Shown piece by piece: positions 1 to 45,239 of a DNA stretch of 64,000 nt. The stretch is taken from NCBI GenBank assembly GCA_973895155.1, contig OZ316891.1, forward strand, positions 27,105,254-27,169,253, written 5' to 3'. The notes below the pieces were generated by a model. That model was not told the origin of the DNA and searched no databases. It saw nothing but the letters and a program-made list of their open reading frames with translations. The position numbers and the translations under genes are program-made. The DNA comes from Marsupella aquatica. Taxonomy: Eukaryota; Plantae; Marchantiophyta. The stretch's first letter is position 1. Each line of letters opens with the position of its first letter.

Positions 1-1841
1 AAGAGAGAGACTAAACTTGAGGCATTTGCTGACGCTTTTGCATTGCAACGGTGCAGGAGTTTGAGCCAAGCAAACATAACATTGATGTTATGCACATTGA
101 GAAGAATATTTGTGAGAGTCTACTCAGATTCTTGTGTGGAGAGAAAGACACTGGTTCAATGAGATTGGATCTTGAACAGAGGGGAATGAAACCCCATCTT
201 TGGTTGAGGCCACATGCCCACAAAGCTGATGTGCTCTTGAAGTACCAAGCAACCTATGTTCTGACAGACACAGAGTGAGAACTATTTGTGCAGAGGTTGA
301 GTTCTTTGAAGGTTCCTTCAAACTATGGCAGTGCTTTCAAGAAGCATATCATGACTAGAAAGCTTGGTAGTATGAAAAGCCATGACTACCATATGTTGAT
401 GCAACAGGTGTTGCCTTTATGTCTGAGGGGCCTGTTGCAGAAGCCTGTTCATAATGTGATCATGCAACTTAGTGATGTGTTTTGTCGTATTTGTGTGAAG
501 GTTTGGGATGAAACACACTTCCCACAACTGACAGAAGATATCGCTCAGGTGCTGTGTGACCTGGAGATTTATTTTCCTCCCGCATTTTTTGATATCATGA
601 CCCACCTACTTGTCCATGTTGTGGAAGAGCTACACCAATTTGGGCCTGTGAGTGCTCGTTGGTTGTATCCTTTGGAACGGTACATGAAGCTGCTCAAAGG
701 TCACATGAGAACATATTACAAACCTGAAGCAAGCCTGGCTAAAGGTTACATCAAGGATGAGACTCTGGGATTTATGACCGAATACATAGCACAATATGAG
801 CATGTGAAGACCAGGGTGTGGAATTATGATGAGGAGGAAGGGGTGATAGGTGAAGTACTGGAAGGGGCTGCAACCACAAAGAACCTGACCACATCTATGA
901 GGGACTTGGCACATGACTTTGTATTGCACAACACTGTGGTGATGGAACCCTGGATACAGTGAGTGCATACATGTGCTATAATCCAGTTCATGAGCTTAAA
1001 TGTTGTGTGCGTGTGATTTTCTCCTTCAGCCTGTTCATATTTACCCAAGCTAATGCTGTGTGGTTGTTTGTTTAGGGAGTATGAGTCATTGAAGGCGGCC
1101 CATCCCACTGCAGGAACAACTTTTCCAGGTTTCATGGAGTGGATTAGAGTGGCAATTAGAGAGCATCACGAGACCCACCCAGACATGGATGCAGACGTTT
1201 ACCTACTGTCTTATGCCCCTAGCCTGAAAGTAAAGACTTACAAACGGATGAGAGCATATGGGAATCACTTTCGAGTGAAGGATGGTGATAGTGCCTACAG
1301 GGTGACAAATGACTGTGGGCTCATCACTGTATTTGAGCAACAGAGTCACAATCACAACAGGGCCTGGATGGAGATGGGATATGTGGGAGAATTAGTTGAC
1401 ATATGGGCTCTGGACTATGGGGCGGTGTCCAGTCCTGTGATTCTTATGAAAGGTTCATGGGTGCGGCAGGATTGGCTTGGTAATAGGGCTACCATGAAGA
1501 GAGACAACGACAGTTTCTTGCTGGCCAATTTCAGAGGGAAATTGCCCGAATGGTCTGAGCCATTTGTGTTTCCCAGTCAGGTGGAGCAAGCTTTCTTCCT
1601 GGATGTGGAAGACTCCCCAGGTTGGCGTGTAGTGTGTCATAAACAGGCCAGGCAACGTCGGATGGAAGGATCAAACCTTGAGTTTCATTTACACTCTCAT
1701 AGTGCCTTTGATCGTCGGCGTTCAGACCAAGTGCCTGTAGTTCATGATAGCGGGGACTTCATTCCTGTGACAAGGGTAGATGCATTTGCTGAAGGAGGCG
1801 AATTCAGAGATGCAGATACCAACAATGTGCCTGTGCCATGA
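1..1841 (+). pseudogene. CACTA (En/Spm TnpD/Tnp2-like) transposase, C-terminal part (DUF4218/DUF4216-like)
   Basis: Motifs DVMHIEKNICESL, KSHDYH, FPPAFFDIMTHLLVH, RWLYPLERYMK, EPFVFPSQVEQAFF. In-frame TGA at 276-278; GT-AG intron at about 960-1075. Confidence 0.9.
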
Positions 1842-2320
1842 GTAATGTGAATTGTTTGCATGGACAATAGTGAGGGGATGTGTAATAAAGTAATTCTAAA
1901 GCAACACAGATGTATGGATGGATGCCTGGTGATTGTGGTTGCATTGTATTATACGGGGTGACCATAGATGACATATTTGTGTGGTCCAATAGGATGGAGC
2001 AGAGTGACACATAGATGTGTGAGTATGAAAGGAAAGCTATGGAACAACGAGCATACATGAAAGCCAAAATTGCAGAACTGGATCTGGAAAAGGATGTGGC
2101 TGAATTGTAAGGGAACGATTCTCAACTACACCCCTCCGCTGAGTTTGTGTGACATGAATAGTTCAATGTGGCACTGAAATTGTGACTGTATTCTCATATT
2201 GGAATGTCGTAGAGCAGCAGGTTTTTCAAAGAAACAAAAGGAGTACGCAAGAAGGGTGACCAGCACTATATCTAGGCCTGTGCGTCGGAGTGACAGGTTG
2301 AGCAAGAAGGTCGTACCTAC

Positions 2321-5300
2321 AATGGCAGAATGTGGAGATGACATGGATGCTGCGCAAGTGGGTGCAGACACTAGACAAGAAGATGCAGATGATGAGTATT
2401 TTCCAGAGGAAATGGATGAGGATGGGGTTATGACGATGAATACATTGCAGAGCAGCCCCAAAAGAAACAGGTAAGTAGTTTTCCCAACAAGCTAGGTTTA
2501 GAGTTAAAAACTCTTGTTGAGAGGTTTCATATGTTCAGTACTACACCCTATGTACCTTGCTTAGTTCCTTGTAGTTGGTGATGTGATGCAGCGTCCTGCC
2601 AATTTTGTTTTGCCTGCAAAGCCTGTGCATGCACCATACCAGCAGGGGGGCTCACCTCTGATCAAGGTTGGCGAGGTGGTAGTAGTGGTAGATCCGAGGC
2701 TGGTGCCCAATACTATGGCAGGGGGCAAGCTCTAGGTTATGCCCGTGGTAGAGGCAGAGCAGGTCCAAACCCACAGTCTCGTGGGTATGGACGTCCACCT
2801 CAACCATGGGGATGGGAGTATATATATCTATATGCCAGTTATTTGTGAAGGCATGGCACGAGTCCTGAATTTCAGACTGCATATCAATTTTTGACATTGT
2901 TTGGGATGTATTGGATTCAGACAACATGAAATTCTTTCCACCTGCCATTGCATGCAGATTCTGCCCAACCTGATTGGGCAAATGCTGGTAATGATCAGTT
3001 CCAGTGTCCACAAGGACAGACATGGGTTGAACCAGGTTGGGAGGATGGTGGTGGTACGTGGAATGAACAAGGTTGGGAAGGTGGTGAAGGTAATTGGCAG
3101 GGATTTCAAAATACAGTACCTACAAATGCTGGAAGAGGGGCAGGTAATGTATGATCTTGTCAGCAATGGAAGAACTCATTACATGTGGAGTCCATTGACG
3201 TGGGGGGGATTCTGCACATGTATAATAATAGAAAATGTATGTGTGCAGGTTGGACAGTCGAACCATCGACTCAAGTATTCACTAATGCCCCTATGCAGAT
3301 GCAGCACGGAAGGGGGCCAAGTATGTTGGTGAATGTTCATATGTTTTCCTATGTTCCTATAGTTTGTACTTAGTTTTCAGTACATATGTTTGCACACACA
3401 TACCTAGAAAGTGACATCATCCGGCCCCTGTACAAGGCTGGACAGGTGGTCCAGGGTCACAACAATTCCAAAGTGCAGTCCCTGCACAGGCATCTATAGG
3501 CAAAGCTATAGGTATGTATGTTTGAAGAATTTTTCTTGAAGTGAAGCATTGAATGTTGCCGTCATCCATTCTGCTGTATGTAGTTCTCAAGCATGAATGG
3601 CATTGTATTTTCCCAAGTGGCTGCAGAACCCCAGGTAGGGTGATGAAGGGGTGGCCAATACAATGCCCAGTACTACCGAGAGTAGTGCACGAGGGGAGGT
3701 GACAAAGAAAGGGAACGTAAAGTTGAATGAGAGACAATGGGTGGATGTTGAGTGTCCTCGTAAGAACCATTGGCATGCTGATTTGAAAGCTGAAGTATTG
3801 CGTTGGTTAGATGTGAGTGTTATTAATTTTAAAAAACAACATCCAAAAGATTGGAAGACTGTATGTGAAAATGTTGCTGCCAAATGGAATTATGTGGGCA
3901 GTGATGATGGCGTGGACATAGGTTGCCTAGAGAGTACAACAGGTAAAATCATAAAGCAAGAGAGGTGGAGAATGCACAAGGCTTGGAAGGAAGGTGGGGA
4001 GAAGCCAGATATGCCTCCACCAGCCAATTGTGATGATAAAGTGTGGGCAAGGTTAGCAGCTTATTTTGTAATAGATGCTTCAAAAAAGAAGAGTTCACAG
4101 ATGACCGAGGCCAGGTTGAGTGTTCAGAACCCTAATCTGATAGGAAGGACCGGCACTGCACCGACAGCAAAATGTTTGGTAAGAATGAATGGCCTAGCTA
4201 TGTAATTTATGCTACACTATGTACTATGATTTAGTGTAAACCCATACATGTAAACTTTGTTTTTTAGTGTACGTTCCCTGAATAATAATGATAACTTGTG
4301 TTTGCCATGCATGTGCAGAAAGCCCAATTGGGGCAAAGCCCTTCAAAAGAAGAGTTGAGGGCTGAAATTGTGAACACTCGGGCTCAAGAGGGTGCATCTG
4401 AATCCTCCAAGCATGTAAGTTATATGAGTTCTGATTGGTAATTGAATGACCTGCATTGAATTTCAGGTGTACACTGTATATATCACATTCATTGTGCATA
4501 TATTGCCCAACATTTCATATGGAGTGATTGAACCTATACCCCTATGTCATGTAGGGAGGTGGATCTTCACTTACATAGATAAGTGGTCGTTTGAAGGCTG
4601 TCGAAACATGTCTTCCAGAGATCAATGAACATTTGAATTCGTTGACTGACTTGTTCCATGTGAACTTCAAGACATTAATGGAAGCTGTTGTGTCGGTGAG
4701 AGATAAAATTGATTCCAATTCTGCAGGAGTTTCACCATCACCACTTGAGGTGGCAAAGTCGATGCACTCTTCTGGCATGCCAACGACATGTAGGCTTGAA
4801 GGTAAGGCCTTTACAACTGTGTGGGATATGATTAGTAAATGTATAGTTTGAATTGACATAGTTTGTTGAATGTGTTATTTTTAGTAACATATATTGTGGT
4901 TGTTGTGTCCATAGAGAATAAGACAGGTGCTGAAGAGAAGAAGTATGAGAACCTGGCAAATACTCGCTGTAATTTAGAGGCAACAAAGTTGCAGTCTGTA
5001 CAAGCAACTTGTTTGACAGAGGGCAGTCAACCATGTTTGGATGAGGATGACATTGGCAAGGGAGTGGATGATATCAATGTTGGGGCAAATGAGGATATCA
5101 ACAAGCATGACAATGATACCATTGAGCCAGATTCATGCTATGTAGATCTTGACTCCATTGCAAAGATAAATGATTTGCAGAATGTATCATTCTCAATGAC
5201 AGGTGTGCCTCTTGTTGAGATAAATCCAACCAAAGAGTTAGTTGGTATGACACTCCCAGGTGGTGAACCTGCTGCTGTGACAGTCCTAACAGAGGAACCT

Positions 5301-5711
5301 ACTGAGCCTAGCTTCACTACTGTGAAGAGAGGAAGCATGCGCACACGAAGCAAGTCTGCTAGTGGGAGCAGAGCCACGTCAAAGGTTTCATACAAACCTC
5401 CAAGAACGGTGCTGGCAGAAAGATCTAAGGTGGAAGTCGGGAAAGCACCTAATGCTGAGGGACAAAGTGGCTTGTTAGCTGTTGATGAGAGTGGAACACG
5501 AGTAGGATTTGGCAGAGTGCAGGTTGGTTCCACAACGTTCCATGGCAAGCGGATTCCCCCAGGTTATTCAGTAGTGTTAGTCACATTACTAGTGAAACCT
5601 AAAGCTGTCCTTCCCATTCCAAACACAAATGATGATCCTCCTCAAAAGACACTTGGAGATGCTGCAGGTTCTTTGGTATTATGGCCAAGCAAGTTCATAG
5701 AGGATCCATAA
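2321..5711 (+). CDS. Multi-exon CACTA accessory gene (TnpA/Ptta-like, with Tnp1-like C-terminal domain)
   Basis: ORFs 3651-4205 (W...L..YF...KS.QM...R) and 4863-5711 (G.V....FHG..IP.GY..V.V......A.LP.P......TLGDA.G..VLWP) separated by GT-AG introns. Exact exon structure not fully resolved. Confidence 0.65.
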
Positions 5712-6449
5712 CAATGTCATGCCATTATTTGTTCGTAGTGTGAGTCATGTTATGTAGATTTTAGATGTCAAGAAGGAGTACAAGAATCATGTCCTCTTGG
5801 AGATTCATAGTATCATGCATGTGCTTTCAGTTATCTCATCATGCAGTCATCAATTATGAGTTCCTGTTTTGTCTTAATTACATTGATCACATTGTAAACT
5901 ATTCCATTGGAATTCAAATGATCTACATTTTTGAGCAAGATTGTGATTCTGTTTAATTCTTATTAATGTTTTGTGTAGGATCTCCTTATATGATGCTTTG
6001 TTTCATGTGAATGTCATTCATGCTATTTTCATTTCTTGTATTCAATGTGTTATATTTCTAAAGTTAGAACATCAGGTTTCTATGTATTGTAATGTGGAGT
6101 GCTCTCTCTCCTTATGAACTGTCCCTCTGTGTTCATTAGTCATGGTTACAACTTGCATGTGAACCTTATTAGTTATAAACATGAGTATATAGAGTCCCAA
6201 ATGGTTCTGTTGTGTGACCCGGGCCAGGGTCTCCATTGGTCTCTCCTGTGACACTAAATGGTCACACGCTAGTCGTTGTTGAATGCGGGTAAGTCATGTA
6301 TGTGACTTACCATGTGACTTGTCAAAGTCATATTACAGTCACGTAGAAACAAGGCTAGACTCCACAATAAAGTCACAGATCAGTCACAAATGGGTATCAA
6401 GCAAGTCACAAAGCCCAGTATCAATACACTAGTACATTTTCAGCGTTTT

Positions 6450-6770
6450 TCCGATGCTCCGATATCGCGAGAGCTCAGCCGTCCGATACTAAACAAATCA
6501 TAAAATGCATCGGAATTGTTCGACTTCAATAGTAACGCAATTTGCCATTCTTTTTGAATCGCATGTTAACCTTCCGATGCAAATATAAACGGTCCTTTCT
6601 TCCGTTAGATTTAGAATCGGATGTCTTCCGATAAGATTAGTAACGGAAATGTATCGGACAAGTATCCGATAACTGTTAAGAGGGGTCCGATGCAGACTGA
6701 ATCGGACAAGGTTTCGGAATTAAGGTAAGATGTTTCCGACAATTATGCGATGTTCATTGGATCGGATATG
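6450..6770. repeat. Left subterminal TCCGAT/ATCGGA array of inner CACTA
   Basis: More than ten direct and inverted copies, e.g. 6450, 6483, 6509, 6573, 6616, 6627, 6654, 6666, 6686, 6701, 6761. Confidence 0.9.
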
Positions 6771-7924
6771 GTGTGGAAAATGAATACTCATAACTTTATT
6801 AAGAAATCTGGTCCCTTTCATAGTAGAGGGAACATGAAATACAACAATGATATATATAATGTCGGTAAAAATAAACATATGGAGGGGTCCTACGCGATTA
6901 ATCCCAAGTTACACTAGCTAGCAAGGACCTCAAGGCTCGGGGTCCAAATCTTCAACTACAACCACATTGGGTTGCTCCTGGATGATGGATCGTGATCGTG
7001 GAATATAAGTCATGACAATGGACCACTCAGGATCATCAGGATACGGAAGATAGAAGGCCTGCTCAAGATGGTGGGGGAATGCAAATGGATCAGAGGTTCT
7101 CCAAGTTGAGCTAATGACACTATTTGCACCTGTCTTCAACCATGTGAACCCACAAGCATCCTCTTTGCAAGTTCGGTTATGGCCAACAAGGTTCATCCGA
7201 AACCATTTGCACTTCAACACCACCTCCTCCAAAGTGGTGTGTGCATGATAATGCACTGTCAATATCTCTTCAATCTTGCCATAGTGGGCCACTGTAGAGC
7301 GTATTGGATTCCTATCAGATGTGCTACTTTGTGAATCTTGGGTGAACCAACCCATGACCCCACAATCCTGTGTAGCTGCCCTCTTCTCATCAAGCCGTTG
7401 CACACGAAAATGCCTTCCCTTTGACCACATGGCGGTCCGAGTTGTCACTGTGAGTAATGGTCTATGAACCAAGGTGCAAAGGCTGTCTGTAACCAAAGGG
7501 AAGTCTGACACGCTCTCCCCTTGCTCCAACAAGGCATCAATCTTGGTCAACTTTGCCCTCATGTATGGGACAAACTTGGGGAAGATGCGTGGCCGATGAC
7601 TATTTGCCTTTTCCTCCTCATAAAAAGTTGTCCAATCTCCTGCAATCTCAGGCAAGTTATACAACATAAATGTAGTGACTTGAAGGCGCTCAGCTGAGCC
7701 CAAAAGTTGTTCTCCCTTTGCCCCTGTAAGACGGTCATCTTCAAATTCTGCTTCCCTTGATGCCTCGTCTATCCACCCCCTTGGTGCACTGGGATCAAGT
7801 GTAGCTACAATGTTTGTACAATAAAACATGCTCTCTGCTCCAAGATGACGCTCAGCGATGCTACCTTCCACTCTCGCACAATTTGACACATATGACTTCA
7901 TCACTCCCATAAACCGCTCTACCC

Positions 7925-8578
7925 CCCTGGGCCCCCAGCCTTTGTAAACTAAAGAGGTATACGTGCGTACAACCCCCTCCCTAGTACCCTTTATTATTTT
8001 TGGGAGCCTATAAAAATTTCTCTTGTTATTCTTAAAAATTTAATTTTGGAGAATAAATCTGCCCCTTTGAGATATTATAATTTCACATTTTACACCATTT
8101 ATGAAAGTTATAAATTCATCATGTGCAAACGGTTCTAAAACTGACGGGAGTGTTTTGGAGGGGTTTTGGGTACATACATTTTTGTGTTCGTGACCATTTA
8201 ACCCCAAACTTCAACTTTGGGGCATTTATGAACCACAGGGCAGGGTAGTCAGGGTTCAAAAGCTCCAAAGTACTAAACTACTCTGAATCATAGATATTGC
8301 AAGCATAATTATATGTCATATACACATGTTCCAATAAAGGGTGGCCACAAGGACCAATCCTATTGTGACGCGTGTCACATCCATATTACATCACCTCTTG
8401 AAGCATATTAACTAGGGCGACATTTATATAAGCCTTTATTAGTTAGAAAGGGTTTTTGAATAAAACCATCCCTTGATATTTCTAAGCCAATTATAAAAAT
8501 TAATCTCAAATCAGATTTTTTGCACCCTTCATCCGTTCGCACGTCCAGCCCATTATTAATAATGTTGGGGGCCCAGGG
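7925..8578. mobile_element. 654-bp non-autonomous TIR element (MITE) with 8-bp TSD
   Basis: TIR CCCTGGGCCCCCA(G/A)C at both ends; TSD CTCTACCC at 7917-7924 and 8579-8586. Removal restores the transposase sequence WMYWVE-RFMGVMK. Confidence 0.93.
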
Positions 8579-11083
8579 CTCTACCCAGTACATCCAACGA
8601 CAATGTACCGGCCCTGCAATGCCAACCTCACGCACTAGGTGTACGAGGAAGTGAACTTGGCCATCAAAGAATGAAGGAGGGAGTGCCCTCTCCAACTTGC
8701 ACAATACCTCCACTCCAAACAGGTCCATAGCTGCAATCTCATCCTCATTCACCTCTTTGACACACCCACCTCAAGAGCTTACCTAATGACCACAGGGCAT
8801 CACAAAGATCCTCACTACCCAATCCAATGATGGCCACTGGAATGACATGTTGTAGTAGACGATGGTAATCATGGGTCTTCAAGAAAGCTGGCCAATGTGG
8901 ACAGTCTGGTCCCCCAAATGCCTTGCGCAGATTGGCCCCGTAGCCCGTAGGAAACCTCATTGACCCTATACGATTGCGGAACTCAATCCGCTCACCTCTG
9001 GTCAATACCCAAGGAGGGTGAATAGTAAGGGGGCCATTAGGGGGATCAATAGATGGCCAAAAACCATGAGGACCATGCATCCCCATCTCCTCACAACTCT
9101 CTCTCCAGTTGTTGTCTTTCTCTCCGTATAGATGGCAAATCAATGACCTCCCAACGTTCCCCTCAATATGCATAGGGTCAAACAAATGGTTAATTGGCAT
9201 CTCAGCCCAATATGGCAGCTTTGACATTAATGCAGACAAACGAGTCATGCCACACCGGGCCAATGGTAAGGGATCATCTGGGTCTGTCACTCTATCCCAT
9301 ACCTCCTTCCAATAGCGTGGATCCCTTGGCACTGGTTGAGGGCATGTGTCTGGTTGGCCATCATCCGTGTCATATAAGAATGGGTCACGCCTCCATTCAT
9401 GCTCTGGGGGGAGATACTTTGTGTGACCAATGTAAACTATCTTCCGTAGGGTGGTAGACTTAGGGCGTGCCACTCCCTCCAAATCAGGACCACAAGTTGG
9501 GCAGGCTCGGTATCCTGATGTCTGCAACCCAGAGATATATCCAAACCCTACAACACACACAATCAATACATTAAACAATAGCCAGGCAAACTTTTATATA
9601 TAACATTATCCTATAGTGTATTATCTACCATAAAAAACCATGCATAATATTGGGGAAGGTATATTTTAACATACTAGGAAGATCATGTATGGTCCACATA
9701 ACGATGGCTTTTAATTTAAATTCACGAGGTAAACCACCCGTCAGCACTCGACCATCATAGCAATCCACTTCCCTCCATAGTTGTTGAAGCTTCTCCAACA
9801 ATGGTTGCAAGTAAACATCAATCTTTTTTACTTGCTTGGGGCCTGGGATAATCATTGAGAGCAGCAAATGACCTTTCTTCATGGCCATCCATGGAGGGAT
9901 GTTGTAATTTGTAAGGACTACTGGCCAAACTGAGTATGGTTGGGCCTTCCGGGCCAATGCAAAGGGGCTGATCCCATCTGATGCCAAACCTAGTCGTACA
10001 TGACGTGGGTCTGTCTTGAAGTCACCCCATCGGTCCTCCACAAACCTATTTGCAGGTGAGTCCACCATCATACGCATGGTTGGCCGATCTGAACTCATAT
10101 CTGACCGGTTCTTCGAATGCCACACCATATACTCAGCCAACTCTGCACATCGATACTGGTGCCGTAATCTGGGGATAAGAGGAAAATACCTCATGACCTT
10201 CTGTGCTACTTTTCCAGTCAGCATGTCCTCTCGATACCTCGGTTGGTCACATGTAGGACATGTAGTGGCATCTTTGTGTTCGCCCCTGAATAGAACACAA
10301 TCATTCACACAAGCATGTATGACTTCGTATTTGAGGCCTATGGATTTCAACACCTTTTTTGCCGCTTTCCATGAACTAGGCAAGCAGTTCCCTTCTGGCA
10401 AAATACGACTATGCAAGGTCCTGAAAAGATCATCAAGAAGGAGATTGCTTGCTCCATGTCTTTGCTGCAAGTTCAACAATAACATTATTCCTGAGAGCCG
10501 AGATAGTTGTGACCCCTCAAAAATTCGTGTTTGCGCATGGTCACGAGCTTCCTCCCATTGTCTAGAGGAAGAACCTTGTGAAGGATTGTCACCATGAGGA
10601 TGTGCATTGGTGTCAAATGCATCACCCATATCATGGTCACCATCCTCCACGTCATAGAACTGGTGCATAAGATCATCCATGGCCCTCTCCTCCTCAAGTT
10701 TATCTTCGGTGGCATTAGACACATGCTCAGGAGGGGCATCTTCATTCTCTGATGCTTGAGCCCTACGCCAATCACCCATGGCCTGAACAAGGTGTTGCCA
10801 CATTGCTTGTGATAATACCCCCATATCTGGTTGAACATATGCATTCTAACATTTCACAAACATACATATTATATTAGAAGGGCCACATGCAATGAGACAA
10901 GTGTTTAAAGGTATAGGCTTTTTGGTTTCCCCGCAAAATTACAATTCTCTTTACACATTCTACTAGTATACTTTCAAACCTTGATCAAAGATTGACTTAC
11001 ACAACTAACCAATTTAGTTTGAAAACCTGTATCATGTATTTTATGTTAAACAAAAAGGTGGTATATATACATATATGTCTGCC

Positions 11084-12002
11084 CTACATGGGGCGAGAAA
11101 GCAATGTTTTCTTGGGCCTATCCCACTCATAGTCACAAAACAACTCCTGGCCAGCCCTAATGGTTGTAATGGCTATAGTCATGACATGATCATCCATATG
11201 TTTTACATAGTAAGGCTCTCTAGGTGGACCAAATATCTGAATCCACTCTACATTAGGCCTAAGTCCTCTCCCTCTACCACGAGTACTATTGATGTACCCA
11301 GCTATATTATTGGAGTGAACATGGTTGCCATCAATCATCCGAGAATGCCAAGGCCTCCGTATGAGCTCATCTGGATCAGAATCCATTTGCAATGCATAGA
11401 CACCCCACGATGGGTGTTGGCGCAATAGAATGTTCCAACCTTTTGAAGTATACACAGGACCAATGTATGGAAATAGGTGCTCACCATCATAACCTTGGGG
11501 CCACGGCTTGGGCGGGACCACAATGTCCTCCAAGGCAAACACCCCAAATCCTATGTCATGGCCAAGGGAAGACGCCTTCACTATCCATTGGTGACCCCAT
11601 ATGTGGATAGGGGTATCAGTGGTTAGGCCAAGGGGTATTTTGAATCTATCAGATGAGAAATCCTTCAACACTGTCAATGCCTTCCCGGTGACATATGACA
11701 ACCCCAACCTCCCTTCCACTTCCACATAGTCCTCTCCTGGTGGCACTCTAAGAGTACGGTCTACAACTTGCTCCTCAATCTCATGAGTGCCTGGCAAGGG
11801 TTCATAACGGCGACGTTGTCTCTGGGAACGTGCTCGGGTGCGTCCAACCCTAGATGGAATTGCTACACTCTCTGGCTGAACACGGGGGGGGGCTAGATGG
11901 AGAGGGAGCTGATGATGATGCAAGCAACTCTCTTGCACCAGCCAAAAGCGTATTTACCCATAAGTCATTAGAGACCAATGGAGGAGGGGTCCTACGAGGC
12001 AC
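11084..12002 (-). CDS. SET-domain (lysine-methyltransferase-like) exon inside the CACTA element
   Basis: ORF 11084-11938 shows SET motifs in canonical order: SSLGHDIGFGVFALEDI, YIGPV, MIDG....NIAGYINS, NVEW, AITTIRAGQELFCDYEW. Splice acceptor at 12003/12002. Confidence 0.85.
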
Positions 12003-13192
12003 CTATTCAATCACAAAAAACCAACAATTAATAAATGTATGGGTGCAATGTGGCAAATTGTACATGTCAATGTCTCCAAGAGCAATTAATTGTGCATACC
12101 TCGCGAGTAGAATATCCTGGTAAATTGCCCTCGTGTCTGCCATAGTTCTCAATATGCTCAATGGCTTCCCAGGCTTGACGAACCACCATGCCTTTACATC
12201 GGACACACCAACATGGAATAGGTCCTAGAGGAGGAGGACATTGAAGCCTTGGAGGGGGGGAGGAATGTCCCCCTCAGAAGATGAAGAGGTTGAGTAAGAA
12301 TCCGACTCTGAACTCTCGGAAGAAGACATCTGTCCATCACCCATACAAAAATAACCTTTTATGTGCCATTGTGGGAATTAAATATGTAAGACCAATGCAA
12401 TAAATATAAAGGCAAAAAAAACATATAGATGTTTTCATATCAATAATACCTGAATGAGACCCACGCTTTGCAGTGCCGACTAGGATCTTGGCCTTAGATT
12501 ATATTCTAAGACAAATCTGAAATTGCTGCACAAGTACACTTGAGCTTAATTGGGGTACACCAATATCAATAATTCATAGTAATTATAGGTAATGCTTCAT
12601 AGTAAATATAGCTCACATTGTAGAGGTGGTAATACCTTTCAGATGTGCGGGCTCTCACTGTGCATGATGCATTGCAAAAATGGACCCAAAATAATCGCAA
12701 TAACCTAACCCTCCGCAAAAAGGAACTGCAAAATTCCGAATGCAAGATGCATAAGGTTAGCTAGGTCAAATTGTATTTGGCACTCCAAATTAAATGCCAC
12801 CCTAAAAATTTGGAGTAACCTTTAACAATAACCCGCAACCCTTATACATACCAACCACCTCCAAAATCATGCATGTGACTCGGGATACCATGGCTCCGAT
12901 GGTCCGCCCTATCCGTAGAACCCCTGGCCAACACATAGAACCAACGTAGTGTCATCCAAAGAAAGACCAACTTCATTTACCATGTTCTCTATATCGGAAG
13001 AGCCTTAGGTTAGTGCTTTGCAGGAGGGGTCCGATGTTCATCCGATACAATCTCCGATACAGTTTTAATGGGAATTTCCGATGTAAATAGAATTGGATGA
13101 GTAGTTGGAAGCATTTTTAGGGCACCCGACCTAAGTGCGAACGCACTTGAGTCGGGCTTTGCATCGAAGAACAGTCGGGAGTTCATGTCTTT

Positions 13193-16100
13193 GTGAAAAA
13201 CAAGCACGTGGCGCACGGCAGCGAAGAGCAAATGGCTATGGAGGGGAGCGATGGAGGGGCTGGGGGAGGGGCAGGAGCAGGGACAGGAATAGAATTCGGA
13301 GGAACAGCTGGAGGGCAAAGAGATGGTGGAGATGGAGGGTCAGGAGCCGGACAAGGTGGGGCTGGAGGAGCTATTGGGGATGGAGCAGGGCCATCAGAAG
13401 ACTTTGGGGAGATCATGGCTGCAATTTTCCATAAGCAGGTAGGGCTCTCCATAGAGCATGCGCAAAAGGTGGCTGCATTGACACAAGGATTGCTAGACTC
13501 TTCTAGGAGCATTGTTCTTGCTGAAGCTCAGAAAACATTTGAGGAGAGGCAGCGTACTAGGGAGAAAGAGAAGAAGAGGAAGAGAAGGGAGGAGAAGGAG
13601 ACTGTACCTGTGGAGGCCCTCTCACCACGAGAGAGAGAGAGAAGGCATTACGTAGAGAGGCACGGGCTGCAGATAGGAAAAGAGCCGAGGAGGAGAAGCT
13701 GCGAGCAGAGGAGAGAAGCAAGAGGCCAAAAATTTATTTGAATGAGGGAGGAGCTCCGAGGGCCAAGAGCTATAATCTTTTCAAGAGTCAGCTTGGGCAA
13801 GTACTTAGATCCCATTTTGGAGTGTTAGATTACTGGGGGAAGGAAAAGGAAGAAGAGAAGTTCAGAGTTCGTGAGCAGGTGAAGGAACGTTTTTGCAATG
13901 GCTCATTCATTGATGACAGGTTCTTAAACAAGAAAATCAGTCTATCCCTTGCAGACAGAAGGAATCACATCAGGTAGAAGCTGAGGAAGTACCTTGGTGA
14001 GTGCAAGGACAGTGAGGAGGTGATCAGGCAAAGAGGGTGCCCAAATGATATTCCTGTGGAGGTATGGCCAGCTTGGATTGAGACCGAGCTGCAGGTTCGA
14101 GCCTGGCAGGCAAGGAGATACTGGCAAGCTGAGCTAGAACTCCTTGCACTGAGGGCCCAGGCAGGGGAGACTTTTGACACCCGCCATGCTGATCAAAACC
14201 TGCAACATTGGGATGCAAAGTCAAATCAGCTTGGGGACCCTCCCTCACATATGCAAAAGGCATTGATTCGAGTTGAGAACAGGCCAGTAGTCACTCACAG
14301 AATGGGGCAGGGCGGGTTGCTGCGTCTCAAGGCAGAATTTGTAAGTAGACTCCACCTCCTCTCTCCAAGCTCTCCCCTCCATTCACCTAATCACCTGAGG
14401 CCCTTCTTTGCCTAAAGAGCCCCGGCCCAAAGTCCCCTCTTATTGTCAAGTCGTGCGGGCCCTGCAAGCGCGCTATGCATGTGATCAATAACTCCATCTT
14501 TTTTTGTCGGGGCCCTATTTCCGATTGTGGTCCGATAGTAGTAGAATCGGAAGGACAGTCAGAAATACTGCTATGGCTTTTTTGGACGTCGTGTCCGATT
14601 CCAATCCGACCTTGATGCTATCGGACAAACAATCGGAAAGTAATCGGACAGTTTGAATTTTCAAATTTTTTGACGGTTACCCTTGCGGATAATTGTGGTT
14701 GGTTCCATTGACCATTTAAAAACATGTTGGGGGTGATCCAGTGTGGATCTAATTGGGGTGTGACCCGGTGGCACTAATTGGGACTAATTTGGTTGCCGGT
14801 GCATTTTTTGAGGGGGGCAGGAGCGCGAGCATGGGCGACCATATTGCCAGAAGAGAGGGAGTTGGCTAAGAAACAAGGACCACGGGCTCTTCGGATTCAC
14901 TTGAAGGAGGAGTTGGGTTCGGTAAGGAGATTATTTTTAATGCAATGTCTTAATGGGGTGTTGAAATTTATTTCTAAAAAGCGTATACTAATTTGGGTGG
15001 TTGGTTGGATATATGCAGGGCTCAGACGAGGAGGGATCGGAGGGTGAGGACTCGGCGGACGAGGGCTCAAGGCATAGCAGTGGGGGATCCGGCAAATCTG
15101 ATTTAGAGTCGTCGGACCCAGAGGAGGGGATTGTGGCCATACCCCCTCCTCGCCGGTCCGATACAGTTAGGGGTAGTGCTAGGGCTCTTCAGTTGACCCG
15201 TCGTGGCCCTATAGCGGATGTTCGTGCGACACATACTAGGACCAGTAGGGGTGGTGCTAGTGGGACCCCTCACCAGCCTAGAGCCATAGGGGTTGGATCT
15301 AGTGGCAGACGTGACTCACGGGCTGCTGGCACAGGTGGTGAGGGTCCCCGGCGCCGGTCACGGGCTAGTGGCAGAGCTGATATTCGAGGCACTCGGCATG
15401 TGTCGCGAGATGAGCGACATGCTGTTGGTGAGTCTGGCCGATTAGAGCCTCATGGGGAAGGGTGTTCTAGAGGCTCACAGCACTCTGGTGCAGATGGGGG
15501 TGGCTCAGGAGGTTCTCGTCACTCAGGCTCGACAGGGGGTGGTGTTAGGGCCCCAAACCAGTCAGGAGGGAGTGGTGGTGTTGCTGGTGTCTCTCCCCAC
15601 TCAGGCCACATTGGGGGCGATGTTACTGCTCCTGGTCAGTCAGGAGGGAGTAGAGCTAGTGTCGGTGGTGTGTCTCACCACTCAGGCCGCATTGGGGGCG
15701 GTGTTAGTGCTCAGGGTCAGTCAGGAGGGAGTAGAGGGAGTAGAGGTAGTGTCGGTGTTGTCTCTCACCACTCAGGCCGCACTGGGGGTCGTTGACCTGC
15801 CCCTGGCCAGTTAGGAGGGAGTACAGCCGGTGGAGTTGGTGTCTCTCACCCTTCAACCCAGACTGGGGGTGCTCATATTGCCCTTGGCCATTCAGGAGGG
15901 AGCGGGGGTGGTACATCACGGCAGTCCGTTGGCAACGGGGCTAGTGGGGGTGGTGCAGCTTCCTTTCATACTTGCCATGCAAGTGGGGGGAGCGGACCTT
16001 CCCATGACTCCCTAGCGTCACATGGTGGTGGTGGTGGTGGTGGCGTGGGTCCAGTGCCTCCTATGACCTCTACACAGGGGCCAGATGTTGTGGACCAAGT

Positions 16101-16210
16101 CACCATGGACAAGCCCCCATTCACCCAGACTCCTGCCCAGACTAGTATTGTACCCCCACCACCTCGGACTCATTCCAAAAAGAGGAAGGGACGACATGCT
16201 CCATTTTGAC
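13193..16210 (+). pseudogene. Second (TnpA/Ptta-like) multi-exon gene of inner CACTA, divergent from the transposase
   Basis: Consecutive ORFs 13193-13741, 13738-13977, 14020-14415 (HRMGQGG motif), 15001-15795, with splice donors at 14341 (GTAAGT) and 14922 (GTAAGG). Contains stops and frameshifts; G/S/R-rich low-complexity tail. Confidence 0.6.
15480..15910 (+). repeat. About 60-bp degenerate coding tandem repeat (Gly/Ser/His-rich)
   Basis: Recurring CACTCAGGC..CA(T/C)TGGGGG...CAGTCAGGAGGGAGT...GGTGT.TCTC units. Confidence 0.75.
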
Positions 16211-16549
16211 TTAGACTAGCTTAGATAGATAGAGACATACTGCGTAGCGTTAGACTTAGACGAGATTAGGAGTTGGATGTGCTTACTTTTGTGATCCCAG
16301 TACTCGGATCACTCTTGTACATTTTGGGGTATGTTTCCCTTTTGGAGTTTGAGTACCCTTTGTGGCCATATATCCTTCTTGTGTTAATTACTTCTATTGG
16401 CATTGTCTTTCAAATAACCTCTTCAACATCTTCAACAAATCCCTCTATGTTGTATTGCGTAAATTCCCCCAAGAACCACCCTCAACCCCAACAGAAAAAA
16501 TCCCTACAAGAAACCAAATGTTGCAATGAAGCTAGGTCTTTCCCGAGTA

Positions 16550-16970
16550 ATCTTCCGATACTTCTCCTATCGCACCCCTCCATTGCTTCCGAATCCCTCC
16601 GTTTCATATGTTCCGATACAAATTATATGTCAAATTCCCATACCAAAACTATCGGAACATCCGTTTATTCCACCATCGCAATGTCCGATGGGGATTTTAA
16701 CGCAATATCCCTTGAAAATTCATACGGACAACTGTCGGACGACAAATCTTCACCTAGTGCAAGGAGAGGCTTCTTCGGGCTCTTGTGACATCGGACACCT
16801 AATGTATCCGATTGCAGGAGATATGCAATGTCCGATAGTATTGGTATCGGGTGGTCCAAAACAGGTCCGATGGTCCATATCCGATTATGGGAGTATCGGA
16901 CAGAGCGATGCAGTTAGAATCGGAAACCTCAAAAATGGCATCGCATTTTTCCAAAAGCGTCCGATGGTAT
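16550..16970. repeat. Right subterminal TCCGAT/ATCGGA array of inner CACTA
   Basis: Many direct and inverted copies ending just before the right TIR. Confidence 0.9.
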
Positions 16971-17151
16971 AAATATCGGTAAATGGCCCTAAAATGTACT
17001 AGTGATAGTGACTTCCATTTTTTGGTCTCAACTTTTGCAACTCCAAGGGTCACAGTGTGGGTCAAGTCACATTGAGTCACAATGAAGTCACATGAGCCAA
17101 AATGAGTCACATATTGCGGTCTCAGTTCACCTCGGATTCTTCTAGTCAGTG

Positions 17152-17647: not shown

Positions 17648-20600
17648 TGTCACACAAACAATCTGGGCCTTAATTTTGGGTTAACGCTCTAGGGTGCACA
17701 TGTTTGGCCATGTCTCTGACTAGATATCACACAAACAATTTGGGCCTTAATTTTGGGTTAACGCTCTGGTGTGCACAATGTGACCACCAGTAAAGATGAG
17801 GTTTCGGGCAAGAAGGGGTGTAGTGGCCCGTATTAATCTAAGTCAAACTATATAGATTTATGTAGATATGGATATCATACGTATGTTTGGATTCCACCAT
17901 TGGAATACACCCATAGTCAGTGACTCAGACTAACTCCTAGCTTGGGGACTTACAAGCCATTGCCAACAACAAGAACTCCCAACGTATTCATGTGATGCCA
18001 ATGACATGGTCCTTATTCAATAATACGATGGAATTGGTATGTTGTACGCAAGAAGTAACTATGAGACTGCATAACAATCAGCAAGATGGCAAGAATAAGG
18101 GCAATCATGGCGTTTAGAGTAGGACTAGGGTAGTTTATGTTGAAGAGCGCACAGCCAAACCAGACATAACGGCAACAATCATTGTAAGGGCCACAAATAA
18201 TCAGCTGGAGGACAAGAGGATTAATTCACCTCCTCTACCATATTATCTTGTTGACAAGCGCAATGGAGCACGGAGGCTCTCCAAAATGCAGGGGCAAGGG
18301 CGGATATGGTAATAGGGAAACGAGTCTCCACAATTGAGAAAACGGCTATGTGGTATAATGGTTGTTCTCATGATGAAATCTGAATGCCTTGGGCGTGTAT
18401 CTTCATTTTGTTACTTAGGTTAGTGATTCATAATCTAGTATTAGTGTGTTAGGGAAATAAAAAGTTATTATATCACGGGTGGTTGGTGACCATATCTCTT
18501 TCAAAATGTCATCAAATCTGGATCTATAAAGAGCATTGGAAAGATCTAGTCAAGGTGAGTAAAATCAATATAAAACACTTAGGAAATGGAGGTGTATTAA
18601 GAAAAATTAATATTGCCTAATTAATTAGTGTCCTAAACTGCCTCCTCTACCTCGTTGGAGACTTTGTCCACCTCCGGTTGCGGACGCGCCACCTCCAGGT
18701 TGAGGTTACCAATTGTTTTGAGGTCGGCTTGATGCAGTGCCAACCACTTATCCCAATCAGTGATTATGGTAACTATTCACTTGCTGAGCAACTTGCACAA
18801 ACTGGTTGTTCAGGTTGGCCAGACTCTTAACATGAGTCACGGACTCCTCCTCAAGCCGAGCTACAATGGCCTTATGCGACTTAAGGTTCGCTTGAACCTT
18901 AAGTAGTTCTTAGTCTAGTCTATTCTGCTTGTCTAAGATGCTGACTAAGTCCCCTTGGTGGGCGGTGGCTGCAGACTCTAGGCGTTCCATGGTCATTTGG
19001 AGGGCCCCAATCTCATTCCCTTTGGCCATGAGTGCACGTCTAGCAAGAGGGCCATATGCCACGGGTGGTGATCCAACCTGAAGAAAGCCGATAATCGGAT
19101 TGCAAGTAGTTAGAGACCTGGTGGGCGATATACTCCACTTAGCTCCACGAAAGGTGTTGACTAAACTTTTTGGACCAGATCGTGGGCTAAGGTATCAGGT
19201 ACACTAAGTACTCGATCCTCCACGGTCTTTGGCAAGGGTCCTTCCATGGTTGGGGCTACTGCTTCCTCCATAGTTCGCATAGGAGAAAGAATGGGATCCG
19301 CAAGGGGTGGTGGAATTGGCGATGGTTGCGTTGGAGGCAGCAAGGACCTGTAAGGAGTAGGTTGTGATGGAGTGGGGGCACGGTTTACCCAAGCTGCAGT
19401 AGTCAGGGCCCACGATGTGCTAATACTGGGGGTGGGGCCGGCGTTGATCGAGATCGAGGTTGCAGTATTCTTCCCCCTAACCTTGCGTCCTTGCTTGTAC
19501 GGTCAATCTAGGACGATTGCAATGTGACTTCCTAGATAGGTTTTCCCACCAATGAATAGGTCTATCTTAGCCCATTTAAGCTCCCCAAAAAATTGGCGGC
19601 TAAAGAACTAAGCCCAATTCTGCCTCTTGCATTGCTCCACCTACATAACTGTACAGAGGGAGATCTTGGATCAAGGTTCGATCATGTGCATGGTGATCCG
19701 GATAAAGTTTAGTCGCCCCATACAAACCAGATTAGTACAAGAACCTTGCTTGTACCTGTTGTTTGTCTTGCCCTCTGGTTTGAAGTGTTGAGGGACATAC
19801 TCCTTATCTCGATAGACAAAACATCTGGGCCAACCGGTACTCCGAGAGGGACAAGGTTTGTCCCAACACCGTGGTGGCAGGTGTGTCAATGTCAAAGTTT
19901 GAGATGAACTCATGCATCTCCCTTGCCCCGAAGGCGATAGGCCTCTAGATTAACTAAGCAAATTTATGTAATTGATGCTCCTTTAGATAGTATGGGTGGG
20001 ACGAGTCCTTGATCGCCGCCTAGACCACCTTGAGAATGTGGACTATCTACGACAAGTTTTGCTGCAAGGGGGTGGGTCTCTTCTTGGATTGGGCATTGGG
20101 GGAGGGGTTGGCCGGGGCTGGAACTCATATGGGGATAGGTATAGTGTGTGCAAGCAATTCAGGTCCTTGCATCGTCCTAGCCCACTTCCATGAGCATTAC
20201 ATTAGGTGCGAAATATCTTCTCTGGTTGAGTCCAAAGAACACTATGCATTGTTCATAGCGCAAACCTGGGCCTGACTAGGCAAAACTCGCTTGGCCGGGA
20301 TGATAGGGTGGTTGGTGGTTGGTTCTGGCAGAGTAGCCATGTCCCAATTTAATGCATTGGAGCTCTCCCCAAGGAAGGTGAGATTCCGCATTGCCTCCCG
20401 TTGACAATTGATTTCTTCCGCCCTCCGCTTGGCTATAAGCTGCTGCTCTATGTAACCCGGGATCTTGTCAATCTCTGCCTGAGCCAGCTTCTGGCCGCCC
20501 TTCAACTTAAAATACTTTGCTGGTACAACTAAAATTGTCTCAGCTACCAACCGAAAGCCTTCTTTGTTGATGTACAACTTGGTAATGTAATCCCAAACCT

Positions 20601-21370
20601 TGTTATAGCTTGCGTCCTTGGTGAGTGCAACCTTCTCGCAGTTGATTTGTGCTTCCTTAATCACCAATTTAGCATATATACCTTTGCTTGCATGCAGCTT
20701 TCTTGAAGCAAGACTACCAATAAGTCTCAGATAGGTTGGCGCCTACCTCCCCAACCAGGGTCCAAAATCCGAGAGCGACAAGGGTCATACTAACCTTCTC
20801 ACTCTATTCATTGAGTTTGTCCCCTACGCCCATTTGTTGTCACAGTATTGTAGGTCTACAATCTCCCATGGAGAACTCCCAATCATCTTTGTGTGTCGCT
20901 CCGACTAAATCTCACTACAATGTGCGCTTGTCCTTTGGTTTCCTTGATAAAAGATGAGTTTGATCAAGAGCAAAACTGGAGAGCAAGAGCAAATTGACGG
21001 GAACCGGCAATGATGATGGCAAAGTGCAAGGTAGCAAATGAGTTGTCATGCCACCAAATGGGTTCTTATGGAAGTTCCTAGGCCAGCTTGGATGTGAGAA
21101 CATTGAGTATTGTCGGCCGCCATCGCTTGGTAGAACGCGACTGCCTTGGTCCAAGCATGAATTTCCATAAAAAACTTTTACCCTTCCGCCGCCATAGAGT
21201 AGCGAATGATTGTAATAGTGCACATTGAAATTGGCACTTGTGAAATTGACTAACCTATTCCTAGCCTAATCATAATTGAAAACCCTGCTATGCATATTGT
21301 TCCTAACTATACAAATACGGTCCTAATCTACTACTTGCGTCATGGTAAGTGGCACATTGCCTGTGTCACA
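17648..21370. mobile_element. 3.7-kb LTR-like element, diverged relative of 33643-37246, with a decayed minus-strand ORF
   Basis: TGTCAC...GTGTCACA ends; colinear similarity with 33643-37246 (e.g. CATAGTCAGTGACT...CTAACTCC..GCTTGGGGA; AAATTGACTAACCTATTCCTAG; ORF pieces DKIPGYI, YKQGSCTNL). About 76-bp tandem duplication over the left junction; no matching TSD found. Confidence 0.7.
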
Positions 21371-27100: not shown

Positions 27101-29319
27101 GTCTAGTACTTAAACCCTTAACCTTACACCCTAAACCTACGCCACAGAGTATTCTTTGGTTCCAAAAATATGGCAGATTATAAACAAAATTGGGACTAAG
27201 GTCTCGTCAACGCTAGCACACAAAGTCAAATTATCGGAAGGAAGTTGAGCAATCCATCGTGGTTACTCTAGAGAAGCCTTTTACACTTCCGTGCCATGCT
27301 GAGACATCGGCGAAGGAGGTTGATGAAGCTCCTATGGAAGAGGCATATGCAGGGAAAGCTTGCACCTATGGTTTGTGGGAAGGCCATTGATCAAACGAGC
27401 TTGCATGTATCCCTGTACTCTACAAAGGCCACAAGAAGGTGTATAACTTGGAACTTATGGAGTGATAACACTGACTCAGTCTTTGGCTCAAATGGGTTCA
27501 AGTAAAAATACCTACAGTACTTAGTAGAGATGCACCTTTCATTTGTAAAATGTTCATATAGTCTCTAAATGTAATGAATATGTGATAGTTGCTATAACAT
27601 CAGTGTTCACCAACACAATCATATCATGTATTATGCCTGGAAAGGTATATATGAGGAACATTGGAGGGAGGTTATGTAACTGCTCCCTAACCTCAGGTGG
27701 CTTAACTAGAGGTCAAACTAACCTGGGGTAGTTGACTAGGGTTTAATCTACATGGTATAACACTTTCCCTTGGGGATTTTATGGGTTTATAAAATGCCCA
27801 CTATTTATGTAGAGTTAAAAACCCTATGTGAATTGGATGGTCCCTATTAAAGTATGGCCTCATCAAACCCTTCCTGCTTTCTTCAAAAGGGAAGAGTACC
27901 ACTACTATACATGGTATAGGGCCATAATATGAAAGTGTTTGACTAGTAATGTAAGGTGCCTCTACTGTAAATTTTGGTTGTCTACTATTGTGGTGAGTTC
28001 CGATTATTGTTTTGAAGAGTCGGGTGTTGGATGTGAAATGTCATTCGGATGAGTGCGGTGACTATTCTGGAGGTCTTAGGGCAAGATTCAGTCACAAAGA
28101 GCACAGTAATAGTTCGCGGATTTGTGAGAAGGTAGAATCAATTGGAGCCTGGTTGCGATGTGTTGGCGATCCTATGCCGGTGTCAATCATATGTGGGAAG
28201 GCTTTGAGTGTGTTTCATGCATCAAAATCGCTGTTGGTGACTGGGTATTTCTTGGATCGACTGATTTCCTGCTGGCTGGTTATATTGTTGATTTTTTGGG
28301 TGGCGATGATTGCGGCAACTGGGCTAGAGGAGTGCCAGACGGATAAGGTGTGTGGTTTCTGATTTTGTTGCTGTAGACGTCCCATGTTTGGTGTCTGGTT
28401 TGCTTGAATGAGTTTGATTGTAGTTCCTTTGCTCCTTCTGTCCTTCTTGTGCTGATTCTCAATGGAGTGTCCTGCAGTATGGTATGGTTGATTTAGGTCT
28501 GTGTGATCCAGTTTGATATGATATAAGATGATGGAAATTTCCGTCTTTGTGAAGTCTTTGTCGGTGCGTCGTCTATGGCCGCTTACTAAATGTATAAATG
28601 GCCATGGTTTCACTTTTGATCCCTTGGGGTTGCTCAAGCAAATGTGATTCAGTGGTCTCCTGCTTGAAGATCAAGATTTAGTCTCTGTTTGTTGATGGTT
28701 AGTGTTTTAATTTTCTCGTTTGAGAAGTGTTGAAAGTTGTCTCATACCAATTCCGAGTGTATGTTCCTTGTGGAGGGCTGGTGGTAAAGGTTAATTTGGT
28801 GAATAGATCGACTCTACTCTCCTTGCTTGGTATCCATTCAACCTTTATCTTGTCTCCATGTTGTTCGTGGGTATAATGTTTTTTGGTGCAATATGTTTAA
28901 TTCTGTCCCCTTTAATGAAGCCTTGTGTAATCTGGTCTACACATGGCCAATTGTCTTCATAAATCACTGTTGGCTTCTGAATGAGCTGTTGGCTTGTGTT
29001 CTGGTTTATATGATCTATAAGTTGTCTCAGCCAGATACATTCCCGACTTGCCTCATAGAGTGCAATTGTTTTTGCGTGATTCGATGATGTGGTTGTCAAA
29101 GTCTGCTTCAAACTTCGCCAGGATATTGCGGTGGTGCCCTGTAGGAAAACGTATCCTGTCTGTGATTTTGAGTCGTCTGGATCAGATAGTTTGTTTGTTG
29201 TATGTGTGGGGAAGAATAGGCCAAGATCAATTGTCCCCTTTAGGTATCTGGAAATCCTTTTGATCCCATTCCAATGTCGTATTGTGGGTTGGGAGCTGTG
29301 GCGGGCCAAGAGATTTACG

Positions 29320-29943
29320 CTTGGGGGAACCACGTGCAATCCAAAATAGGTATTTTTGATAAAAATTAACTAAATTTTTAAAAAGTGTAGGAGGCAAAAG
29401 AAGGTATTATAAACTAATGTTCATAGAATATTCTCTAATATATACCTTTTATAAAATAAAATAGGTTATTAATATAAAAATAGAATATTTTCTAATATAT
29501 ACCTTTTATAAAATAAAATAGGTTATTAATATAAAAAATAGAAAATTTTCTTGAAATATTTTCTTTATAAAATAGGAAACATTGGTACGAACTAAAGGCC
29601 CACACTTCATTGTATAATATATTTAATCTTTAAGGAACGCAATGGGAGGGGCAAAGCTAGCTATGAAAGACCCGGACGGGGGTCCCCCCCGGCCTCCCCG
29701 TCAGAGAGCCGATGGGCGGCAGCTATCGCTTCGGTTATTTTTTTTGTTCCCGAGGTCCGAAGCTCTCGACCAGCGGGAGAGTTCTTTTATGTCGGAGAAA
29801 AGGCCCGAAAACCAGGCTCTACCCGCCCACCTGACTTTTTCAGGAGCTTCACGGTGCACCAGCGCCTATTACAATAGGTCTATTTATATTAGGCTAAGAT
29901 CACACATGGTACCCCAAAATATACACTTAGTTAACCTCCCGAG
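29320..29943. mobile_element. MITE, 624-bp copy of the 22989-23274 family, inserted in Copia RT
   Basis: TSD GATTTACG/GATTTATG at 29312-29319 and 29944-29951; right end GTTAACCTCCCGAG; splits RPDISFA(I/V)-NLLAR. Confidence 0.88.
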
Positions 29944-45100: not shown

Positions 45101-45239
45101 TCGAGCGGACACTCCATGGTTACAACTGACATATAATATCTTTATTGTACAGTATTTCTGGCATACATTTGGGTAGCGCCCGGCGTTAGCATAGTTGCAC
45201 TAAAAAATACACCCAAAATAACAACAGAGATCCAAGTTA

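Follow-up and report, generated by a model that had tools for sequence, protein, structure and literature searches.

A conserved SET-domain exon inside the transposase gene of a liverwort CACTA transposon, possibly read as a second product

A CACTA transposon in a 64,000-nucleotide stretch of the liverwort Marsupella aquatica (contig OZ316891.1, positions 27,105,254 to 27,169,253; the window in what follows) carries a SET-domain exon in its transposase gene, flanked by the first exon of that gene (exon A) on one side and the Tnp2 exons on the other. This SET exon is almost certainly encoded by the element and under selection. The original prediction, in which the transposon makes its own lysine methyltransferase-like protein, stands insofar as the SET exon is element-encoded, conserved and selected and the layout fits two products from one splice donor. 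The fuller proposal, a two-product CACTA gene whose SET product would be a lysine methyltransferase that marks the element's own copies, we regard as evenly balanced. The parts of the gene, all on the minus strand, are the following.

12100–12329, minus: exon A, 230 nt, with ATG at 12329, a Ser-rich start, a CxCxxC-x13-H motif and a phase-0 donor (GAG/GTATGC)
12003–12099, minus: predicted intron 1, 97 nt, GT..AG, GC content 0.33
11084–12002, minus: SET exon, with linker, basic stretch, N-terminal extension, SET domain and its own stop at 11086–11084
10846–11083, minus: AT-rich spacer, GC content 0.31
6930–10845, minus: Tnp2 transposase exons, with PF02992, PF13960 and PF13952 matches and an intron near 9547–9671

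The SET exon and its conservation

The SET domain and the SET fold are genuine. Frame 11953–11087 matches PF00856 above its cut-off (28.7 bits, E 1.9e-6; cut-off 22.4), as the original prediction had anticipated, and P0001, a protein of the liverwort Calypogeia fissa, reaches 34.1 bits. A structure model of 11099–11749 built from 81 sequences has a mean predicted local distance difference test (pLDDT) score of 91.8, compared with 40.6 for a model from an 11-sequence alignment, and Foldseek matches it to SETD8 (E 3.9e-7), LegAS4 and MLL1, in the range 4e-7 to 8e-7. In a fold comparison, Set1, EZH2 and SET8 are placed at Z 12.1–11.5 (root-mean-square deviation 2.9 and 126 aligned for the match at Z 12.1), and the SET domain of SETMAR stands at row 34 of the list. 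Viral SET domains match the fold no better than cellular ones. The best PDB profile match is Legionella LegAS4 (E 2e-6), which also leads the top fold matches in identity (28%, Z 10.9); this similarity is too weak for origin or substrate to be read from it. A single-sequence PDB search returned azurin alone, with E above 1.

The exon is not peculiar to this copy. With E ≤ 0.001 as the limit, 130 proteins were recovered in a profile search, at least one of them spurious, and of 30 clusters looked up, ten carry an organism: three Calypogeia fissa, six Riccia sorocarpa and one the fern Adiantum nelumboides. Calypogeia fissa and Riccia sorocarpa belong to different liverwort classes. Among named relatives, the SET protein is closest to one of the leafy liverwort Calypogeia fissa (68%), and there is no host SET gene among the named matches. 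Confinement to a single copy, which would have undone the original prediction, is contradicted by the many loci and families and the two liverwort classes that share the exon.

The arrangement around the SET exon is conserved as well. Most of the 35 metagenome loci form one family, 42% identical to the window in the SET domain, beside which stands a sister locus, L001. In all 20 loci where the SET end is complete and 280 nt or more of downstream sequence is available, the SET exon is followed by Tnp2 (the other 15 are short, cut or rearranged there). Of the 18 loci whose SET start is intact and which extend 370 nt or more upstream, 17 have exon A with a phase-0 GT ahead of the SET exon. Locus L007 is intact in this region, with an exon A of 231 nt, an intron of 117 nt, a SET exon of 801 nt with one stop, and a spacer of 146 nt that ends in TAG/AAT and leads into Tnp2; a counterpart of this spacer is also found in sister loci. 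In the Calypogeia model P0001, a stretch matching the final 30 codons of exon A is followed directly by the codon with which the SET exon opens at the 12002 acceptor. Three models from Riccia have SET sequence and Tnp2 in one protein, and two of these are the best long matches of the Tnp2 in the window. Six predicted proteins, in separate parts of a quick tree, have a Cys/His motif ahead of the SET sequence; two of those with motif and SET, P0034 and P0200, come from contigs that we assume were probably gene-called without splicing.

Two side observations concern the relatives. P0177, P0179, P0184, P0200 and P0225 form a distant SET subgroup with many decayed copies, in which P0200 and P0225 have a Cys motif ahead of the SET domain. 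In locus L023, the SET exon is interrupted behind position 605 by what appears to be retrotransposon pol sequence.

Between families, selection on the SET exon is purifying, and neutral evolution, the other finding that would have undone the original prediction, is not what is seen. L001 differs from the majority of 11 family copies by a nonsynonymous divergence (dN) of 0.118 and a synonymous divergence (dS) of 0.407 over 196 codons, a ratio of 0.29 (Fisher p 1.3e-7). In comparison with the window, synonymous sites of the SET exon are saturated (proportion of synonymous differences, pS, 0.73; of nonsynonymous differences, pN, 0.40; pN of Tnp2, 0.29–0.31). Within the family, pN/pS is 0.68 for SET and 0.60–0.73 for Tnp2, as expected for copies decaying after insertion. 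Contigs from four sequencing runs, down to 80% identity, were also compared with the window, with up to 12 contigs per run over single SET positions; statements on listed contigs and sites refer to 32 of 328 contig pieces and 40 of 413 sites. In the SET core, 13 of the 26 listed substitutions are synonymous versus about 24% expected (p 0.004). Because of this purifying selection and the retention of key Tyr and Asn residues, we consider the SET exon to be cargo of the element.

Splicing, activity and competing explanations

The coordinates proposed for exon A, its phase-0 donor and the two acceptors are borne out. The near acceptor is AATAG/GTG at 12002 and the far acceptor GTTAG/AAT at 10845, and in both cases the TAG is the final in-frame stop ahead of the respective reading frame. 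GC content is 0.46–0.50 in the exons, as against the lower values of intron 1 and the spacer; contig similarity falls off at both borders of intron 1, and the donor GT exactly at 12099 is kept in two diverged contig groups. Among the contig joints listed, all runs being contigs, there is no joint at the predicted introns. A phase-0 acceptor candidate at 11875, which would skip the frameshift in the linker, is C-rich and was not relied on.

Two particulars of exon A need revision. The last Cys and the His are separated by 13 residues, where ten had been given, and the resemblance of exon A to the CACTA transposase-associated domain stays below the PF13963 cut-off (27.7 bits). The window has no match to this profile, L010 scores 16.1 bits and P0066 14.9 bits, and a 10-sequence exon A profile scores 8.5 bits against a true PF13963 region, with 1 of 1000 shuffles scoring higher. 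The Cys/His motif of exon A may bind zinc.

Most probably one transcription start feeds exon A, whose donor would choose between the near and the far acceptor; two spliced products from this donor are highly probable. Use of the acceptor at 12002 would give exon A, the linker and the SET domain, a protein of about 380 residues ending at its own stop, from a transcript polyadenylated within the AT-rich spacer. This spacer is likely the 3' untranslated region of the SET form and the intron end of the transposase form. The far acceptor at 10845 would skip the SET exon and join exon A to Tnp2. The SET form would bind S-adenosylmethionine and methylate a lysine of a histone tail, and it could be targeted by the Cys/His motif common to the transposase, or by the protein of the divergent second gene (ORF2, for open reading frame 2) on clustered ATCGGA motifs. 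The mark would keep the element transcribable, so that the SET form would take the role of TnpA or VANC of flowering plants, but as a writer enzyme. That the SET form is an active methyltransferase is somewhat favored; a histone substrate on the element's own copies is more tentative. More tentative again is the broadest form of the proposal, an old CACTA clade in liverworts and other early land plants whose transposase gene would yield a zinc-finger, post-SET-free histone methyltransferase protecting its own copies.

A number of observations weigh against this scenario, and they are taken here with the alternatives on which they bear. The main rival grants that the SET form is produced under selection but gives it a non-histone substrate (the transposase, the ORF2 protein or a host silencing protein), or makes it a non-catalytic domain that only binds lysine peptides; we hold this to be unlikely, although less so than any other alternative. 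It draws on the shape of the domain. The original prediction described a compact SET without a Cys post-SET and with NS in place of NH, and both features prove to be family-wide. The tail after the last catalytic Tyr has a median of 7 residues (n = 67), with no post-SET or cSET segment, and none of the 67 aligned sequences has three Cys there. The canonical SET motif RFINH (PMC3980110) is replaced throughout the family by GYINS, with Gly in 71 and Ser in 78 of 80 relatives. Nor do the fold scores single out a histone-site family, since the values from Z 12.1 to 10 are spread over 18 different entries.

The conserved positions argue against a dead domain. Those that serve catalysis and cofactor binding are kept, namely the two Gly of GxG (64/70 and 70/71), the Asn of NH (72/80), the Glu of ELxxDY (70/72), the Tyr of the same motif (66/70) and the lysine-channel Tyr (76/80). 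In addition, the best profile match, LegAS4 (also RomA), is an H3K14 methyltransferase that likewise combines a compact SET with the lack of the His of NH. Given that LegAS4 is active without it, the loss of RFINH lowers the chance of activity but does not exclude it. According to the accessible part of one report, a dead allele of LegAS4 changes Tyr135, Ser158, Tyr159, Asn181, Tyr220 and Tyr231 (10.64898/2026.05.29.728679). By manual count on the alignment, four of these six positions have conserved counterparts in the family (Tyr/Phe 73/75, Tyr 76/80, Asn 72/80 and Tyr 66/70); of the other two, the position of Ser158 is not kept, and Tyr231 lies in a segment that the family lacks, since its members end a median of 7 residues past the last Tyr. 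Without this segment the cofactor pocket may be incomplete, and its closure may instead fall to a conserved N-terminal extension, about 50 residues long. The same accessible text gives LegAS4 a cSET helix and H3-reading ankyrin repeats, both absent from the protein in the window (10.64898/2026.05.29.728679). Retention of the catalytic residues makes a dead domain less likely, but a non-histone substrate would be compatible with it. The position two before the last Tyr is non-aromatic in most members; by SET chemistry, a non-aromatic residue there would permit several methyl groups.

The proposed splice choice is itself supported by conservation and gene models, and an arrangement without alternative splicing, in which exon A serves the SET gene only and Tnp2 is a separate gene with its own ATG, is improbable. 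In both families a Met lies 8 codons past the far acceptor, so that Tnp2 could start independently; the sole annotated exon A junction encountered, that of P0001, leads to SET; and Arabidopsis EnSpm families with split-gene layouts appear in the accessible portion of the sources. However, the opening of the Tnp2 frame coincides exactly, in both families, with a phase-0 TAG/AAT behind a T-rich stretch, the spacer is just 146–238 nt long, and the SET-free transposase P0250 has the Cys/His domain PF13963 at its N-terminus, the domain to which exon A scores weakly.

Still less credit goes to a SET exon that is mainly a splice sink, lowering transposase output by the position of its near acceptor, which competes with the far one, while its protein matters little. 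A sink needs neither active-site residues nor a reading frame, yet both are kept across families saturated at synonymous sites, and the between-family ratio largely refutes it. Least probable of all is a host gene fragment captured by chance, as in Pack-CACTA elements, and decaying neutrally. This would agree with the broken window copy, whose lineage may have lost the SET form, and with the near-neutral pN/pS within the family. Counting against the reading of selection are the nucleotide identities between L001 and L007, which in intron 1 (77%) and the spacer (81%) fall little short of that in the SET exon (84%), and the ratio of 0.77 for exon A as a whole. The metagenome loci, consisting of one dominant family and L001, count as two families rather than as independent cases. 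Capture is opposed by the recurrence of the exon at one position across many families and in two liverwort classes, by the purifying ratio between families, by a within-family ratio of Tnp2 like that of SET, and by the absence of any host SET gene from the named matches.

As to where the SET domain came from, no relatives were found among 89 candidates from viral contigs, 70 from prokaryote genomes, or phage records, in searches that are insensitive. The quick tree was built without outside SET domains and therefore says nothing on origin. A feature-based listing gives a cluster resembling bacterial effectors, as a lead only.

Comparison with known systems

SET-carrying transposons are already in print, and the placement of such a domain as an exon within the transposase gene of a plant CACTA element is apparently new. 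The novelty first claimed for CACTA elements was too wide: as far as the accessible text of the report goes, red-algal Plavaka elements, also of the EnSpm/CACTA superfamily, carry a conserved PF00856 SET cargo, PAG2, which was proposed to modulate transcription and was not assayed (10.1101/2025.02.11.637652). PAG2 is described there as a separate gene of a three-gene cassette, with an N6-adenine methylase fused to SET (10.1101/2025.02.11.637652), whereas the SET of the window is an exon within a plant-type Tnp2 gene, joined to the first exon of the transposase. There is no PF01555 in the ORFs of the element or in 33 proteins examined, and the methylase-SET fusion of PAG2 was not encountered among them. 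What stands of the novelty is the form: no report of a SET domain sharing a transposase exon, or of one in land-plant transposons, was found in the literature searched (Repbase Reports, subscription papers and bioRxiv supplements lay outside it). In their accessible parts, other papers likewise describe DNA transposons with a SET gene as cargo, namely HarbingerS and MuDR of Phytophthora (PMC12730594), and a SET ORF as cargo of proto-Helentron (PMC4067079). These belong to other superfamilies and hosts, and their SET ORFs seem, in the same texts, to stand alone.

In En/Spm and in Arabidopsis Spm3, by the accessible accounts, one spliced CACTA gene gives transposase and regulator, and in Spm3 TnpA drives hypomethylation within its own family via clustered short motifs (PMC13547354, 10.64898/2026.08.24.746577). 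No SET proteins were found in the accessible text of these two papers. TnpA is described in them as a transposase-derived DNA-binding factor and not an enzyme; in the element of the window the second product would carry a catalytic domain of foreign origin, and ORF2 is present as a separate, divergent gene.

SETMAR (Metnase) is a further case in which a SET domain and a transposase are linked via splicing. SETMAR is a domesticated single-copy host fusion with both domains in one chain, in contrast to the mobile element of the window, whose SET and transposase are predicted in alternative products.

If the scenario is true, land plants have a transposon-encoded histone writer. TnpA and VANC, plant anti-silencing factors, bind DNA and recruit host machinery, and none of the SET cargoes was assayed in the accessible parts of the transposon papers cited above. 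The present SET family is large and selected, has intact members and occurs in relatives of Marchantia, where chromatin is directly testable; the question of whether transposons themselves write histone marks thereby becomes testable. An enzyme tied to the first exon of the transposase would couple both outputs via one splice choice. A small, post-SET-free SET domain would also be of structural interest and a possible part for epigenome editing.

The element, its decay and its surroundings

The element is of the CACTA (En/Spm) type, with terminal inverted repeats (TIRs) starting in CACTAG, a 3-bp target site duplication (TSD), Tnp2 and subterminal repeats. Its remaining features are listed here.

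6427–17004: complete CACTA element, 10,578 bp, with perfect 14-bp TIRs and a 3-bp TSD
16991–17004, minus: left TIR with the CACTAG start; TSD TAT at 17005–17007
6427–6440, plus: right TIR; TSD at 6424–6426
13232–14340, plus: ORF2, divergent second gene, TnpA-like by position only
12895–13077: ATCGGA/TCCGAT cluster, 6 copies, between the two divergent genes; likely promoter region
6450–6761, 14520–14643 and 16554–16960: ATCGGA/TCCGAT clusters of 12, 7 and 12 copies
7925–8578: miniature inverted-repeat transposable element (MITE) inside Tnp2, 654 bp, with short TIRs and an 8-bp target duplication

The two TIRs are identical at 14 of 14 bases. Contigs of all four runs skip about 10.6 kb between 6399–6424 and 17005–17018, as expected for empty sites or repeat flanks, and a short repeat of very high contig depth surrounds the element (about 6000–6426 and 17005–17135). 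In loci L007, L010, L030 and L035, a CACTAC start lies about 3.2–3.4 kb upstream of exon A. The Tnp2 matches are PF02992 (E 9.7e-38 and 1.2e-8), PF13960 and, below its cut-off, PF13952. ORF2 matches no Pfam family and shows no significant similarity to the second ORF of the other element; 9 of the 35 loci have a counterpart, about 30% identical, at the equivalent position and facing the same way. The ATCGGA/TCCGAT hexamer occurs 59 times in the window, and 40 of these occurrences fall within the element, which makes up 17% of the window. Its four clusters lie at both element ends (12 copies in each end region), between the genes and behind ORF2. Also behind ORF2 are Gly/Ser-rich open frames (14992–16209, plus) with five repeats of 78–90 bp, possibly further ORF2 exons.

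The window element is complete but broken. The original prediction had given two single-base shifts in G runs as needing correction, and their location is right. The frame of exon A needs a net +1 at the run 12254–12260 (7 G), and both listed contigs that span this run have it. The linker and SET domain, 919 nt, need a net −1 (mod 3) at the run 11884–11892 (9 G), where the contigs closest to the window copy are 2 bases shorter in all four runs and are also out of frame. Since the closest contigs differ there yet remain out of frame, this second shift is probably real decay, and read errors alone were rejected as its explanation. The linker frame is kept in five of seven listed contigs (+38, +41, −4, −1, −10) and lost in two (−2, −3), a further contig with a gap of unknown length being excluded.

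The original prediction had missed the MITE in Tnp2, four private changes in a SET motif, and the element ends. The private changes are four bases at 11311–11326 that differ from all or nearly all contig depth there and turn DGDPxR of the family into DGNHxH. Tnp2 has a frameshift near 8755–8770, with 2 bases inserted behind 8755 in contigs of three of the four runs, and contigs of three of the four runs join 7915 to 8578. By the length of its target duplication the MITE is hAT-like, and it was inserted at the WMYWVE motif of Tnp2, which presumably holds the catalytic Glu. ORF2 is broken by a shift at the GA run 13629–13642 and a stop at 13975.

A second putative mobile element lies at 44300–54000, with minus-strand ORFs facing a long Cys-rich ORF on the plus strand (50484–52460) that has no clear Pfam match. 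The minus-strand frame 45674–46309 matches the DNA methylase profile PF01555 (E 1.7e-8), and 48717–49553 (minus) shows a ParB-like motif by eye and no Pfam match. This element has a 25-bp repeat in 9 copies and no SET match, and it recalls the methylase and ParB accessory genes that the accessible text reports for red-algal Plavaka and Zisupton (10.1101/2025.02.11.637652).

Another CACTA element is represented at 1–5711 (plus) by its 3' part, which matches PF13960 and PF13952 and contains further ORFs; its 5' end is outside the window. A decayed copia-like gag-pol is recognized by eye at about 28800–33700 (minus), with an 87-bp direct repeat (23018 and 29327) as possible parts of long terminal repeats. 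Another repeat has two copies about 16 kb apart (17871–21282 and 33803–37141), 73–81% alike piecewise. The plus-strand sequence 61958–62356 is an exon of a host gene and encodes a BAH domain (PF01426, E 1.2e-26), which we take to be EBS/SHL-like.

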